The position numbers and the translations under genes are program-made. The notes under the pieces were generated by a model. The model saw nothing but the letters and a program-made list of their open reading frames with translations, searched no databases and was not told where the DNA came from. Positions 3,040-11,690 of a DNA stretch of 12,038 nucleotides are shown piece by piece. The stretch comes from a virus. Its lineage: Duplodnaviria; Heunggongvirae; Uroviricota; Caudoviricetes. Within the stretch, counting starts at the first letter, position 1; every line of letters begins with the position of its first letter. The stretch lies in IMG/VR virus record IMGVR_UViG_2568526312_000023. One strand, 5' to 3'.

Positions 3040-3374
3040 TTTTCCGCGCCCTCACTACAAAGAATTTCAAGGCGTGTCCTGGCGGCATCTGGCAGCGGTT
3101 GCCCGATGATATTCAGTACACGCCCCGCCAGCGGCCCCGTATTGACCTTTATCCGACTGGTGGCGTTGATGTCCTTCCGGTAGCGTATCCATATCCTTAC
3201 AGTTCCAGTCGCCAGCTCTGCACCTGATGAAATGGCCTCCTTGCTGCTGATCATGTTCACGCTTGCCCAGAGTGTGTGACCGTCCACCCACGTTTCGAGT
3301 ATTTCGCCCGTCATGGCTCTGGTCTGTTTCAGGGTCTGAATCGTTACCCTGTCACGCAGTCGCCCTATGTTCAT
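3036..3374 (-). CDS. Head closure / head-tail joining protein
   Basis: RDRVTIQ...W..LWASV...IWIRYRKDI...RI pattern typical of HK97 gp9-type head-tail joining proteins. Preferred start is ATG at 3372-3374 (ATGA overlap with the portal stop, AGGGAG upstream). The track ORF extends to 3416 with an alternative ATG. Confidence 0.72.
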   Translation of the reverse strand: MNIGRLRDRVTIQTLKQTRAMTGEILETWVDGHTLWASVNMISSKEAISSGAELATGTVRIWIRYRKDINATSRIKVNTGPLAGRVLNIIGQPLPDAARTRLEILCSEGAEK

Positions 3375-5164: not shown

Positions 5165-5186
5165 GAAGGGGCTTTTTAGCCCCTTC
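5165..5186 (-). terminator. GC-rich hairpin between capsid and protease genes (possible partial terminator/attenuator)
   Basis: Perfect 8-bp stem GAAGGGGC/GCCCCTTC with a 6-nt loop, 9 nt after the capsid stop. On the minus strand it is followed by CUCUGUUUUA, a U-containing but imperfect tract. Confidence 0.35.
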
Positions 5187-5195
5187 GGTGTGCTG

Positions 5196-6353
5196 TTAAT
5201 CGTCGTCCTGCGGCAGTTCCAGAATCTTTATAGCGTTCGAATCCACCACGCCACCGCCTAAATATTTCTGCGTGAAAATTTTGATAAAGCCCGGCTCTGT
5301 GAGGTTGTCCGGTCTGGTGCGAACACCTGTTTCGTGATCAACAATGTAGTAACCGCGTTTGAAGTCACCCAGGGCAATAACGTTATCAGGCATAAACTCC
5401 AGATATTCGACCGGAAGGCCCAGCAACGTATCAGGATCACCCGCCTGTAAACGGTCGCGCCAGATGTAATCACCGTTCGCGTTCTTCACCTTCTGGAGTT
5501 TTGCCGCCGTCGTGGAGTTAACCACCCAGACCGCGTTTTTGCGGTATTTTTTACGTAATGCAAATTTCAGGTCGATCAGCGGGTCCGCAGATGTCCACGC
5601 CAGAGATTCGGAAGGTTTAATTACCTGCAACGTACCAAAATCACGCTCTTTGTCGTTCTTCTCTGCACGGGGTACGGATAAAAAACCTTTTGCTTTTTTG
5701 TCACCGTCGCCCACAACCAGATCGCTTTCTTCGGTTTCCGTGAAGGTGTCGCCAATCTCGCCCGTCAGCCATGAAAGGATGTCCACATCGGAAAAATCCA
5801 CGATTTCCTGCGTGGTGCGCGGGTACGCATAGACCGGATACAGCTTAATGCTCACCTCGTTAATCTGCGGGGTGCTGGTCTGTTCGCGTGCCTTACCCTC
5901 TTCACCGTGGTTAACGGTCGCACCGCCAGCGGAAACAAGCTGCTTAAACTCGTTGCTGCTGATTTTCTTCACGGTACAGATGCGGCGCATGGTGGATTCA
6001 TCCGTCAGCATTCGCATGATTTCGGTGTTCAGTTCGGGGATAACGGTATAACCACCATCAGCGGGAACGCCTGTACTCAATGCGCGGGTTTCACCTGTCA
6101 GAATGTAGTGACGTAGTTCGGCGGGGTCAGTGGTCTGGCTGTTTTTGCCTGGTTTACTGCGCTCTTCGTCAGCAACGGCCTCAAGGCGGGAGATGTCTTT
6201 ATCGAGGGATTCAGCTTTAGCGCGTAATTCGTCAAATTTTGCGCCCTCAGCATCGTTAAGGCTGCGGTTTTCTTTTTCCGCGTTCTCCAGCATGTCGCGC
6301 ATCTGATTTTTAATGGCGGTTTTCTGCTGGCGTAATTCGATTATTCTCGGCAT
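5196..6353 (-). CDS. Major capsid protein, HK97 fold, with N-terminal coiled-coil delta (scaffold) domain
   Basis: About 385 aa from ATG at 6351-6353 (MPRIIELRQQK...). The first ~70 residues are a charged coiled-coil typical of a delta domain; the rest has HK97-like capsid character. The track ORF extends to a GTG at 6401, but that start would place a terminator-like hairpin inside the coding sequence. Confidence 0.88.
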   Translation of the reverse strand: MPRIIELRQQKTAIKNQMRDMLENAEKENRSLNDAEGAKFDELRAKAESLDKDISRLEAVADEERSKPGKNSQTTDPAELRHYILTGETRALSTGVPADGGYTVIPELNTEIMRMLTDESTMRRICTVKKISSNEFKQLVSAGGATVNHGEEGKAREQTSTPQINEVSIKLYPVYAYPRTTQEIVDFSDVDILSWLTGEIGDTFTETEESDLVVGDGDKKAKGFLSVPRAEKNDKERDFGTLQVIKPSESLAWTSADPLIDLKFALRKKYRKNAVWVVNSTTAAKLQKVKNANGDYIWRDRLQAGDPDTLLGLPVEYLEFMPDNVIALGDFKRGYYIVDHETGVRTRPDNLTEPGFIKIFTQKYLGGGVVDSNAIKILELPQDDD

Positions 6354-6390
6354 AAAAAAAGTCCTGAAGTTAAGTAAGGAACTCCAGGAC
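6354..6390 (-). terminator. Intrinsic-terminator-like hairpin abutting the capsid start codon
   Basis: Minus-strand RNA reads GUCCUGGAGUU-CCUUACUU-AACUUCAGGAC followed by UUUUUUU then AUG. The 11-bp stem has one G-U pair and an 8-nt loop. The capsid SD (AGGAC) lies in the 3' arm of the stem. Confidence 0.5.
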
Positions 6391-6442
6391 GCGGCAAACA
6401 CTCAACCGTTTTTCATAAGGAAATCAGCAATCGCACCGATCG

Positions 6443-6492
6443 TTTTCCCGCCTGGTAATGAATATTGGCGAGCACATTAACAGGCGGGAAAG
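6443..6492 (-). promoter_or_regulatory. Long inverted repeat in the late leader (RNA stem-loop or dimeric-regulator site)
   Basis: Perfect 11-bp inverted repeat TTTCCCGCCTG (6444-6454) / CAGGCGGGAAA (6481-6491), extended by TAATG (6456-6460) / CATTA (6475-6479) after a single mismatch. Central loop about 14 nt. Confidence 0.4.
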
Positions 6493-6610
6493 TGGCCCCA
6501 GCGTCCTGGCACCACGGGCGAGAATAATCATGATTCAGTTCGGGTAAAATATGCCGATCCGGTCAGCGAACAACGTGGAACAACCACGAACAAATAATTT
6601 ACAAAACATG

Positions 6611-6633
6611 ACAAAAAGCCGGATTGCTCCGGC
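6611..6633 (-). terminator. Putative rho-independent terminator after the PerC-like gene
   Basis: Minus-strand GCCGGA-GCAA-UCCGGC hairpin (6-bp GC-rich stem) followed by UUUUUGU, beginning 8 nt after the TAA stop at 6641-6643. Confidence 0.45.
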
Positions 6634-6640
6634 TGTGTGA

Positions 6641-6913
6641 TTATCTGTCCTGGTAATTTCGCCATATTTCATCACCAGCACCATCCATACCCATTTCGGC
6701 ATAAGTGCGATCGACCGCCTTTTTCAGGTCTCCGTAATTATCCGGCGGCTCCGGTGGCCTCTGTGCCTTCCTGGAACATTCCAGCCGTCGCATCGTAACC
6801 TGATGCCGTTCCTTGTCTGTCTCCACCAGTTGCATGACTTCACCCCATCGCGCCGACGCTCTCCGGTAAAAGCCTTTCGCCTCCAGTTCTTCCGCTATGC
6901 GGTCATGTACCAT
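6641..6913 (-). CDS. PerC-family-like small transcriptional activator (putative late-gene activator)
   Basis: 90 aa from ATG at 6911-6913 (GGGGTGGGGA SD). N-terminal DRIAEELEAKGFYRRASARWGEVMQ resembles the PerC/Pch family motif (..LE.KG.WRRAA.RW..) as I recall it. Located directly upstream of the head operon leader. Confidence 0.55.
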   Translation of the reverse strand: MVHDRIAEELEAKGFYRRASARWGEVMQLVETDKERHQVTMRRLECSRKAQRPPEPPDNYGDLKKAVDRTYAEMGMDGAGDEIWRNYQDR

Positions 6914-7932: not shown

Positions 7933-8250
7933 GTGCGGGTTATGCGGGTTATTGGGTTATCTTAGCGTGCTAACCATTTTTTACCCTTTTATATCAGCAT
8001 GTTGCAAAACACCCTGTTTATTATTTGCTCACCACGTAACCCGCAAAACGCTCAAAATAACCCGCAAACGGGGTTTTTTCTGCGGGTTACGCATGACTGT
8101 CCGGTGTTACTTCAGTTATTCGCCTGCGGGTTATAATCGTGCTTTTGCGGGTTATAAATGCCCTTTTGCGGGTTACGTGCGGGTTATTGATTTCCTTTAT
8201 ATTCATGCACTTAATACACTTATACACAGGATAACCCGCATAACCCGCAA
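7933..8250. repeat. Iteron array, putative replication origin
   Basis: At least 11 copies of the 9-10 bp unit TGCGGGTTA(T/C) in both orientations. Forward copies at 7934, 7943, 8081, 8125, 8146, 8167, 8178; reverse copies (ATAACCCGCA) at 8037, 8057, 8231, 8241. Some pairs are spaced about 10 or 20-21 bp. They flank AT-rich tracts (7960-8030, 8190-8230) immediately downstream of the primase gene. Confidence 0.7.
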
Positions 8251-11607: not shown

Positions 11608-11690
11608 CTGTGCGCACAGATTAAAATCATGTGTGCGCACATGTCAATACTTAACATCTCATTTTTTTTGCTGTATTGTGTGCGCCCATA
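11608..11690. promoter_or_regulatory. Divergent promoter region with three TGTGCGCACA-type operator palindromes
   Basis: Perfect 10-bp palindrome TGTGCGCACA at 11609-11618 and 11632-11641, and a degenerate copy TGTGCGCCCA at 11679-11688. Minus-strand promoter candidate: -35 TTGACA (11642-11647), 16-nt spacer containing the second palindrome, -10 TTTAAT (11620-11625) adjoining the first. The third copy lies 28 nt upstream of the ribbon-helix-helix gene start. Confidence 0.55.

Follow-up and report, generated by a model that had tools for sequence, protein, structure and literature searches.

The minus-strand stretch 6354-6640 is a real control region, in which a promoter is followed by a folded leader of 205 bases that hides the ribosome site of the capsid gene. 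The 12,038 nucleotides of DNA in which it lies (the window) are those of an EcCIEDL933-like capsid-forming PICI (cf-PICI) of E. coli O157. On balance, we think it probable that 6354-6640 governs the packaging operon by combining an AlpA-linked promoter with a leader switch made of a first hairpin (P1), an alternative helix and a last hairpin (P3). What the analysis adds is a structured 5′ UTR that is conserved among related islands and has no counterpart in Rfam, and in which an OFF hairpin would compete with a likewise conserved alternative helix; the principles of a hairpin that sequesters the ribosome site, of attenuator logic and of an Xis-like protein with a dual use are already known. 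An earlier note on this DNA had proposed a structured leader on the capsid mRNA, a terminator-like hairpin before the capsid gene and a need for RNA remodelling, all of which remain reasonable; its promoter, its suggested effectors (PerC or a helper-phage factor) and antitermination as a conserved function are not supported.

Island context and the mapped transcription start

The genes of the island are on the minus strand throughout. The annotation contains int, alpA, a primase and a full set of HK97-type genes for head and packaging (capsid, protease, portal, connectors, HNH, TerS and TerL), and neither tail nor lysis genes. Direct att repeats of 70 bp, spaced 15,530 bp apart, flank the island; cf-PICIs are defined as islands of about 15 kb with their own head module and att repeats (10.1101/2022.09.08.507074). 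Iteron-like repeats are located 3′ of the primase gene.

The first gene of the packaging operon is that of the major capsid protein (HK97 fold family; 5196-6353, minus strand; RefSeq WP_021500171.1), with its annotated start at ATG 6353-6351. Between the capsid stop codon and the protease gene is a terminator-like hairpin (5165-5186, minus strand; −17.1 kcal/mol, z −4.7). This predicted hairpin and the leader bracket the capsid cistron, and the former may set the ratio of capsid to downstream-gene products. On the other side of the leader, a PerC-family gene (6641-6913, minus strand; PF06069, 9e-44) serves here as context; the gap between it and the capsid gene is 287 nt (6640-6354), not the 238 bp given earlier. 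A clean terminator right behind PerC had also been overlooked. Directly 3′ of the PerC stop codon, an intrinsic-terminator-like hairpin, AGCCGGA-GCAA-UCCGGCU (6617-6634, minus strand; −12.6 kcal/mol, z −3.8), is followed by the U-run UUUUUGU (6616-6610). The type B leader L004 has a different sequence at this position, likewise a hairpin with a U-run, and in L002 the hairpin occurs in two copies that flank an inserted gene. Judging by its anatomy, the terminator at 6634-6617 would insulate the control region from the upstream module.

The start of the capsid transcript was transferred by alignment from EcCIEDL933, whose leader aligns ungapped with that of the window and differs by 7 substitutions and one extra U. 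The EcCIEDL933 start, seen by Cappable-seq at 1687918 (NZ_CP008957.1) in 7 of 8 uninduced conditions (PMC10469882, Table S5), corresponds to A6558 on the minus strand, at or near which transcription of the near-identical window operon would begin. Since the start maps to A6558, the 5′ UTR comprises 6558-6354, or 205 nt. The earlier note had named a start downstream of the hairpin as an outcome that would speak against its reading; A6558 lies 5′ of P1, P2 and P3 alike.

The promoter proposed in that note consisted of TTGTTC (6573-6568) and TATTTT (6546-6551, minus strand) with a 16-nt spacer. These elements exist, but the EcCIEDL933 start falls between the two hexamers, which rules them out as the promoter that is active in uninduced cells. 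TATTTT is located at +8 to +13 of the mapped transcript and so is not the −10 of the mapped start; one may speculate that it serves as a −10-like sigma-70 pause element. The −10 that does belong to the mapped start is poor (TTCGCT in the window, TTCACT in EDL933). A conserved sigma-70-like sequence, TTTACC-N16-TATTCT (6521-6548, minus strand), is found within the UTR at +11 to +38 and ends 5 nt 5′ of P1, and across the repeat-array leader types TTTAC[A/T]-N16-TAT[C/G]TT holds a fixed position. It may work as an additional promoter that responds to induction, or else belong to the conserved leader RNA. As the main promoter, with a start at P1, it was dropped, as the published start-site table for uninduced EDL933 has no such start.

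Three hairpins and their conservation

The hairpins and the run of seven U residues (U7) reported earlier are present, and each folds far better than shuffled sequence, as measured by the z-score of its folding energy against shuffles. The 16-bp interrupted inverted repeat at 6444-6491 (minus strand), here called P2, reads UUUCCCGCCUG-U-UAAUG, a 14-nt loop and CAUUA-C-CAGGCGGGAAA, and forms a stem of 11 + 5 bp flanking a single U/C mismatch; it gives −22.6 kcal/mol (z −5.6), a stability that none of 200 shuffles matches. P3 with its U-tract (6354-6390, minus strand; P3 6390-6361, U7 6360-6354) gives −16.0 kcal/mol (z −5.7). It consists of GUCCUGGAGUU, an 8-nt loop and AACUUCAGGAC, with 11 pairs of which one is G-U, and the capsid AUG (6353-6351) is directly 3′ of U7. 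This 11-bp stem, 8-nt loop and U7, occupying +169 to +205 of a transcript that starts 205 nt upstream, have the anatomy of an intrinsic terminator, as had been claimed. The claim that P3 sequesters the capsid Shine-Dalgarno is correct as a statement about the sequence, because the only Shine-Dalgarno-like element, AGGA (6365-6362), lies within the 3′ arm of P3. P1, the third of the conserved hairpins, had been overlooked. It has the sequence GUGGU-G-CCAG-GACG-CUGG-G-GCCAC (6492-6515, minus strand; −15.6 kcal/mol, z −3.4), and its GACG loop is invariant across the family.

The 205-nt 5′ UTR would thus fold into P1, P2 and P3, and the complete leader folds with z = −5.2. P3 would bury the Shine-Dalgarno and, in the lineage of the window alone, should also terminate part of the transcripts before the AUG, because U7 follows it. 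A second mask on the translation initiation region is possible. In the minimum-energy fold, GAUUAUUCUCG (6519-6529, minus strand; +30 to +40 of the UTR), a perfect complement of capsid codons 2-5, pairs with CGAGAAUAAUC in those codons (6339-6349, minus strand); the EcCIEDL933 counterpart of 6519-6529 has one mismatch to capsid codons 2-5. Among late genes of phage T4, the translation of e, soc and 49 depends on which promoter made the transcript. As in those genes, a late structural gene here has its initiation region under a hairpin, and 6529-6519 complements the start of the coding sequence. The leader differs from them in that its mapped start takes in every masking element, so that transcripts from A6558 would not automatically be unmasked.

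To place the window leader among its relatives, 48 distinct leader types were gathered via capsid homology, the leader itself not being used as query. Their common layout begins with a TTTGTAAAT box, followed by the promoter region and a 5′ UTR with P1, P2 and P3. The spacing from box to P1 is constant within 1 nt in 31 types, and the short-leader types, from which P1-P3 are absent, retain the box and the promoter region. An RNAalifold consensus comprises P1, the base of P2, and P3, and at least 23 distinct leader types share the P1-P3 structure and support it by compensatory changes. In the alignment, 96% of cells are paired, as compared with 35-48% when the partners are slid, and compensatory changes are found in 12 of 27 pairs (5 of 9 in P1 and 6 of 8 in P2); 0 of 500 shuffles attain the observed values. 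The count of 15 G-U cells versus 3 C-A cells favours a sense-strand RNA. P2 is the variable long hairpin of the family, and its arms are wholly different yet complementary in L004, L006, L007 and L008.

A hairpin occupies the P3 position in all 33 leader variants of types A and B, with U7 or U8 retained in type A, and the remaining types have a ribosome-site hairpin without a U-tract. Scored as a run of at least six T within 12 nt of the start codon, the U-tract occurs in 1 of the 48 leader types. The predicted hairpin that sequesters the ribosome site is, on this comparison, general, and the U-tract is confined to the lineage of the window. A search of Rfam 15 gave no match, with chance-level hits only in the window and eight related loci. 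A covariance model built from 19 leader types, with types A and B left out, scored type B at 65 bits. The window leader gave no match to this model at default filters, and with filters off P1 alone aligns, at 18.5 bits, which indicates that the 3′ half of the leader is a lineage-specific rebuild; the P2 of the window sits where the family has its P2, and P3 reuses the same 5′ segment in a rebuilt form.

An alternative helix that would open P3

The apex of P1, its GACG loop and flank, may pair with the 5′ arm of P3 instead of remaining in its own hairpin. In the window the complement is 9 nt long: CCAGGACGC (6501-6509, minus strand), from the P1 5′ strand and loop, is complementary to GCGUCCUGG (6384-6392, minus strand). 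The latter overlaps 7 nt of the P3 5′ arm, so that the alternative helix and P3 are mutually exclusive. Such pairing could constitute a two-state switch that opens P3. The alternative helix would act as antiterminator or anti-sequestrator, and P1, the alternative helix and P3 would correspond to an anti-antiterminator, an antiterminator and a terminator (or sequestrator), respectively.

The 8-bp core of the alternative helix pairs in essentially all 23 types. Five of its pairs are changed on both sides, which 0 of 500 shuffles reach, and three lineages show U-A, G-C or C-G at column pair 19-141, which covaries with the P1 partner, column 14. As in attenuators, a helix that excludes the terminator has been kept in evolution, its compensatory changes coming from three lineages only. 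Metagenome contigs yielded 77 matches, 7 of them unrelated, and the roughly 70 further members, nearly all of which have the commonest P1 and P3 sequence, contain no new compensatory change in the alternative helix; one metagenomic variant, L209, breaks its central pair. No sensing element of the attenuator kind was found, the leader ORF and its ATG being unconserved and no Rfam riboswitch or leader family matching.

In the window, adopting the nested alternative state costs 13-14 kcal/mol relative to the state with P1 and P3. With thermodynamics on the side of the folded OFF state, full capsid expression would need either kinetic, co-transcriptional formation of the alternative helix or some factor. 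Of the "antitermination or RNA remodelling" to which the earlier note pointed, remodelling is a reasonable idea, because a conserved and covarying pairing would open P3. Antitermination, however, cannot be the conserved logic of the family, since the U-tract is absent in 47 of the 48 leader types.

Like attenuators and 5′ UTRs that sequester a ribosome site, the leader would have three mutually exclusive pairings, with the Shine-Dalgarno held in the last hairpin, and in the window lineage this hairpin is followed, attenuator-like, by a U-tract just before the AUG. Unlike classical attenuators, it offers neither a leader peptide that is conserved nor a ligand pocket or binding protein of a known kind. 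Its candidate antiterminator differs as well, in that the apical loop of an upstream hairpin is used across ~110 nt and the U-tract is lineage-specific.

The same structures could belong to a leader that does not switch but acts as a fixed tuning or stability device, with regulation at the promoter only. P1 and P2 would protect the 5′ end of the mRNA, P3 would set a constant, modest level of translation or termination, and the post-capsid hairpin would fix the stoichiometry. Such a device would account for the strong thermodynamic preference for the P1 and P3 state and for hairpins at both ends of the capsid cistron, and it agrees with the conservation of P2 as structure only and with the short-leader types, which do without P1-P3 and still keep the box and promoter region. 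It does not explain why P1 and the P3 5′ arm are nearly invariant in sequence while P2 drifts freely, and the complementarity between P1 and the P3 5′ arm, kept through three base-pair identities, is unpredicted by a pure stability element. We therefore regard a fixed device as unlikely, though deserving of serious attention, and prefer the switch.

A phased repeat array and the candidate regulators

The preferred switch is joined to a promoter that would be embedded in a helically phased array. Five phased TTGTnn repeats, a putative AlpA site (6568-6614, minus strand), span −56 to −10 of the mapped start: TTGTCA at 6614, TTGTAA at 6604, and TTGTTC at 6593, 6583 and 6573, with repeat starts at −56, −46, −35, −25 and −15, respectively. 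The family-wide box, TTTTGTAAATTAT in the window (6606-6594), lies inside the array and is present in 43 of the 48 leader types. An unbiased scan of 20.5 kb for phased 5-mers returned the capsid-leader array and the att-site arrays only. The TTGTnn array precedes int in all three islands examined and, in the two where att was located, adjoins att and tandem repeats that resemble Int-arm sites. In the window-type island, arrays are found at attL and attR beside tandem 12-mers; the M15 island, which has a different att, has this layout upstream of int and also has the array between int and alpA; and EcCIEDL933 has four TTGTnn repeats between −48 and −13 relative to the mapped int start. These are features of Xis/RDF-type arrays such as lambda X1-X1.5-X2 and those of Gifsy-1 Xis and P4 Vis, namely at least three phased imperfect direct repeats, a neighbourhood of Int sites in att and the presence of an AlpA-family gene, and Xis proteins are reported to bind tripartite direct repeats (PMC2603039).

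Because the same array is found upstream of int or next to att, we infer that it is bound by the Xis-like AlpA of the island (PF05930, 62-74 aa, 63-70% identity between islands). The binder could be Int rather than AlpA, given that the integrases of the two island types show a comparable 68% identity. The lambda sites P′1-P′3, too, are three phased repeats. AlpA is an activator required for induction (PMC6092414; 10.1101/2022.09.08.507074), and Pint of EcCICFT073 is not activated by it (PMC6092414). The start that maps to A6558 is seen without induction, so that its dependence on AlpA is conjectural. The full four-repeat array occurs in just 4 of the 48 leader types, most having at its position another sequence with a GC hairpin and a T-run. 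In islands of this "hairpin" architecture no second copy of the upstream motif was found near int, the only matches being chance 7-11-mers in coding regions.

AlpA bound at the array would tie transcription of the capsid operon to this master activator, in the way that Vis of satellite P4 serves both attP and the late promoters. Vis is, like the PICI AlpA, a small winged-helix protein of the same family (homology noted in PMC6092414), and its binding of attP for excision together with its regulation of late promoters (Polo 1996 and Cali 2004, as cited in PMC2603039) matches an array found both at att/int and at the capsid promoter. The late operons of P4, unlike that of the island, encode no capsid and have Delta and Ogr as main activators, and the island array (TTGTTC, 10-bp phase) is a putative site. 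P4 Vis, which is homologous to AlpA, is said to bind RNA transcripts in addition to DNA. AlpA itself might thus be the remodelling factor, loaded from the array or bound to P1 of the nascent RNA, an extension to which we give a small chance. If it held, AlpA would drive the pairing of the P1 apex with P3 or make RNA polymerase terminator-resistant, and would couple excision to read-through of P3-U7 and to exposure of the ribosome site of the capsid gene. A terminated leader RNA of ~205 nt would build up in uninduced cells, an Xis-family protein would be a new kind of antiterminator or riboregulator, and the helper-independent timing of capsid synthesis in capsid-forming PICIs would be explained.

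A role for promoter-loaded AlpA could also take the form of a module like lambda PR′-tR′, in which an always-on promoter makes the ~205-nt RNA, TATTTT is the sigma-70 pause site and AlpA confers the terminator resistance with which polymerase passes P3 and the post-capsid hairpin. Points of likeness to lambdoid PR′-qut-tR′ (and StxS) are a start in 7 of 8 uninduced conditions, a structured leader of ~200 nt ending 205 nt downstream in a hairpin with a U-run, head genes beyond it and a −10-like hexamer in the initially transcribed region; putative binding-site repeats inside the promoter and more terminator-like hairpins along a single-strand operon also speak for such a module. In contrast to lambdoid late control, the island annotation has no Q-family gene, the terminator-like P3-U7, instead of lying well upstream, coincides with the ribosome site of the first structural gene, and the relatives mostly lack the U-tract. 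The AlpA antiterminator of P. aeruginosa is about twice the size and is treated as unrelated to PF05930 AlpA. We consider such a module improbable. Identity of the PICI AlpA with the P. aeruginosa protein was rejected, as the latter has eight helices and DNA-contact residues up to 142, versus a length of 62-74 aa.

The earlier note had looked to PerC or a helper-phage protein to relieve a strong terminator and ribosome-site block formed by P3-U7. The anatomy of P3-U7 and the buried Shine-Dalgarno suit this model, and PerC is adjacent to the leader in the window island. However, a tblastn search with the window PerC as query finds a homologue within 1.5 kb upstream in 1 of the 48 leader types, so that regulator and leader do not co-occur as in a PerC regulon. 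Type B islands have a ProQ/FinO gene and an unrelated 82-aa gene at the PerC position, and EcCIEDL933 and L002 have a further gene, equipped with a terminator of its own, between PerC and the leader. According to a study cited in PMC11773190, LEE1 fusions did not respond to the PerC-like genes of EcCIEDL933 and EcCICFT073. As for a helper factor, tail-less, DNA-filled capsids are reported without helper induction (10.1101/2025.02.11.637232), and the required island gene is alpA. PerC or helper control is accordingly quite improbable.

It is very improbable that the leader is chiefly a stable trans-acting small RNA that ends at U7, with capsid control secondary. A constitutive start and a terminator would indeed give a discrete structured RNA of ~205 nt, and StxS from Stx-phage PR′ offers a precedent (PMC7547250), but most family members have no terminator at the leader end and the location of the conserved elements is precisely that of the capsid ribosome site. 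Hardly credible is a DNA-level or coding feature (cos, origin, operator palindrome or the 35-codon ORF 6531-6424): inverted repeats could be protein operators and the ATG-initiated ORF crosses P1-P2, yet the G-U versus C-A asymmetry points to sense RNA, the P2 arms change wholly while complementarity stays, a type A variant in L030 and L042 breaks the ORF with +1 and +4 nt insertions and keeps P2, the ATG is missing in many types, and iteron-like repeats lie elsewhere. Accordingly, the cos, origin and operator readings of the palindromes were judged unlikely, and a leader peptide from ATG 6531 was rejected, its ATG being often missing and preceded by no Shine-Dalgarno, and its frame shifted in the L030/L042 variant. 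Many relatives have a 10-codon ORF that terminates in P1.

Capsid-forming PICIs are recently recognised, widespread satellites that build DNA-filled capsids and steal only tails. In the two cf-PICI papers searched, the words promoter and terminator are absent, so that the switching-on of the capsid operon is undescribed there. The analysis supplies a testable map of this step, consisting of a start site, an array shared with att/int that points to AlpA as a direct regulator, and a structured 5′ UTR. It may help to explain why tail-less capsids are, as reported, produced spontaneously, and may provide a handle for engineering or blocking the spread of these satellites.

Hairpins of the capsid leader and their family

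The window shares 3 kb at 100% identity with four E. coli O157 chromosomes, and in the annotation of one of them, strain F8092B, all genes of the region lie on the window's minus strand. Their order is integrase, a hypothetical gene and a 74-aa helix-turn-helix protein; Icd-like and several small genes, then a DUF927 primase; two small ORFs, SSB and PerC; and a packaging block of major capsid, HK97 protease, portal, head closure, connector, HNH, TerS and TerL. A perfect 70-bp direct repeat bounds the island, its copies 15,530 bp apart. Capsid-forming PICIs, with EcCIEDL933 as the prototype, are organized in this way (10.1101/2022.09.08.507074). The capsid leader of EcCIEDL933 differs from that of the window at 7 positions and by one extra U.

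The 287-nt spacer between PerC and capsid (6640-6354, minus strand) holds both structures that an earlier note had proposed. The long interrupted inverted repeat is hairpin P2 (6491-6444, minus strand; 48 nt, 11 and 5 pairs flanking one mismatch, -22.6 kcal/mol, z -5.6). The stem before the capsid gene is hairpin P3 (6390-6361, minus strand; 11 pairs, -16 kcal/mol, z -5.7), with U7 and the annotated ATG (6353) on its 3' side. As the note had held, P3 blocks the ribosome site, the AGGA at 6365-6362 (minus strand) lying within its 3' arm. Two minus-strand elements had been overlooked, hairpin P1 (6515-6492, z -3.4) and a clean terminator directly 3' of PerC (6634-6617); the fold of the entire leader has a z of -5.2. 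Between the capsid stop codon and the protease gene is a strong terminator-like hairpin (5186-5165, minus strand; 9 bp, -17.1 kcal/mol), which probably fixes how much capsid is made relative to the products of the genes downstream.

Related loci were gathered by capsid homology without use of the leader, giving 48 distinct upstream regions, or leader types, with capsids 64-99% identical. The box TTTGTAAAT is found in 43 of these, and P1 (GUGGCACUCAGACGUGAGCCGCCAC) is conserved in 31, its spacing from the box being constant to within 1 nt. P2 comes 3' of P1, its arms wholly different in sequence among types with complementarity kept, and P3 comes 3' of P2, ending a few bases short of the ATG. 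Run on 23 distinct sequences, RNAalifold predicts P1, P3 and the base of P2. In this alignment 96% of cells are paired, as compared to 35-48% with partners slid; compensatory changes occur at 12 of 27 pairs, and the observed values are reached by none of 500 shuffles. The excess of G-U cells (15) over C-A cells (3) points to the sense-strand RNA.

Rfam contains no family match for the window leader or eight relatives. A covariance model was built from 19 types, leaving out the window's own (type A) and a related one carried by the strain M15 island (type B). It scores type B at 65 bits and in the window aligns P1 only (18.5 bits, filters off), which indicates that the window leader is a divergent family member. 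Its 5' half is homologous to the family, about 50 extra nt lie 3' of P2, and P3 is rebuilt on the same 5' segment. A T-run adjoining the start codon occurs in one of the 48 types, and U7 or U8 is kept in all type A variants. The terminator is lineage-specific, and the family-wide constant is not a terminator but a hairpin that holds the ribosome-binding region. One recombinant (IMG/VR contig 2681813004_000015) has a leader that is intact as far as the first half of P1 and then runs into the interior of a PerC-like coding sequence.

A helix that competes with P3

The P1 apex and the 5' arm of P3 are complementary. The pairing strands are AGACGUGA and UCACGUCU in most types, GACGGGA and UCCCGUC in the types L144 and L159, and, for the window, CCAGGACGC (6509-6501) and GCGUCCUGG (6392-6384). 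The 3' strand of the window helix covers 7 nt of the P3 5' arm, and therefore the alternative helix and P3 are mutually exclusive. Its 8-bp core is paired in essentially all 23 aligned sequences, and at one column pair the three lineages carry U-A, G-C or C-G, every change being matched by its P1 partner. Metagenome contigs, when scanned, yielded about 70 more members, nearly all of which carry the P1 and P3 sequence that is commonest in the family; no further compensatory event was among them, and one variant disrupts a pair of the alternative helix. The P1 plus P3 state is favoured by 13-14 kcal/mol over a nested form of the alternative state. In some leaders without P1 (L119, L121), the 3' arm of the ribosome-site hairpin was also seen by eye to recur as a copy on the 5' side. 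As judged from the pairing patterns, P1, the alternative helix and P3 follow the logic of an anti-antiterminator, an antiterminator and a terminator or sequestrator.

Separately, leader positions 6519-6529 (+30 to +40) are an 11-nt perfect complement of capsid codons 2-5 (6339-6349, minus strand), and in the minimum-energy fold the whole leader is closed by this pairing. One mismatch interrupts it in EcCIEDL933; a rough estimate puts its expectation by chance at a few in 10,000.

The capsid promoter and its candidate activators

Cappable-seq of uninduced EDL933 (Table S5) assigns the capsid gene of EcCIEDL933 a single gene-specific start, 1687918, seen in seven of eight conditions (PMC10469882). 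Gap-free alignment places it at A6558 of the window, which is 5' of all three hairpins and 205 nt ahead of the ATG. The promoter hexamers earlier proposed, TTGTTC and TATTTT, straddle this start, with TATTTT at +8 to +13, and that assignment was wrong. A sigma-70-like TTTACC-N16-TATTCT (6548-6521), inside the transcript, is better conserved than those hexamers; Table S5 reports no start at this motif in uninduced EDL933 (PMC10469882).

Upstream of the capsid start, TTGTnn repeats begin at -56, -46, -35, -25 and -15. An unbiased scan of 20.5 kb around the island for 5-mers in three copies at 10-11 bp spacing returned this array and two others only, which lie within the attL and attR repeats beside a tandem 12-mer. 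The M15 island, whose att site is different, likewise has the array in three places: upstream of int next to a tandem 12-mer, between int and alpA, and at the capsid leader. EcCIEDL933 has four TTGTnn repeats at -48 to -13 of its mapped int start. Each island encodes a PF05930 AlpA (63-70% identity between islands), the activator required for PICI induction (PMC6092414; 10.1101/2022.09.08.507074). Xis-type proteins bind tripartite direct repeats, and Vis, the AlpA homologue of satellite phage P4, acts both at attP and at late promoters (PMC2603039). From the array shared with the att/int region, the AlpA in each island and this literature, we infer that AlpA binds the array at the capsid promoter. 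Int could be the binder instead, as the integrases are likewise conserved between islands (68% identity), and the finding that Pint of EcCICFT073 is not activated by AlpA (PMC6092414) counts against the AlpA reading. The full array is present in only 4 of the 48 types, most having other sequence, a GC hairpin and a T-run in its place. An additional degenerate TTGTTC array, 74 bp outside the left att repeat of L160 (a window-type island extending beyond the window; 3055-3098), may be a remnant of an earlier integration.

Neither effector suggested before, PerC or a helper-phage factor, finds support. One of the 48 leader types has a PerC homologue in the 1.5 kb upstream, and type B islands have a ProQ/FinO gene at that position. 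DNA-filled, tail-less capsids of capsid-forming PICIs are reported to form without helper induction, in experiments where EcCIEDL933 was driven by alpA over-expression (10.1101/2025.02.11.637232), and capsid synthesis therefore needs no helper factor. In type B islands the ProQ/FinO-family RNA chaperone gene (L161 12848-13378 in the M15 island) is two genes upstream of the structured capsid leader, its product being a candidate RNA-binding partner. EcCIEDL933 and relatives (L002 1520-1900; L180 7480-7840) carry between PerC and leader a moron-like insertion, a 75-aa ORF bracketed by two terminators that are near-identical copies of the post-PerC terminator.

Other elements of the island and overall reading

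Several further elements were observed. Iteron-like direct repeats (…AUAACCCGCA and CGTAACCCGCAAAA) in the gap 3' of the primase gene (7943-8198; L160 9393-9648) are probably the replication origin of the island. The Icd-like operon and the divergent YlcI/YnfO gene are separated by a region (~11628-11680; L160 ~5910-5965) where two TGTGCGCACA palindromes overlap the -35-like hexamer TTGACA, which looks like an operator for the early promoter of the island. Past the left end of the window, a 54-nt repeat occurs four times, three in tandem, between the last island gene and attR (L160 18121-18432). Just past the right end, alpA is preceded by a near-copy of the capsid-gene cassette (L160 5285-5320), CGUCCUCG-loop-CGAGGACG followed by U7 and AUG, with two GTGATATCAC palindromes 21 bp apart upstream of it. 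If the gene of the master activator has such a terminator and ribosome-site hairpin, this could be relevant to the way helper phages switch on alpA.

Of the regulation first envisaged, the structured leader stands, with a last hairpin that blocks the ribosome-binding site and in this lineage is terminator-like, and remodelling is plausible; the promoter was wrong, and the effectors are unsupported. The mechanism is most likely one in which an AlpA-linked promoter feeds into a 5' UTR with two states. This arrangement is so far undescribed, builds on kinds of regulation that are already known, and is relevant to researchers of phage satellites.
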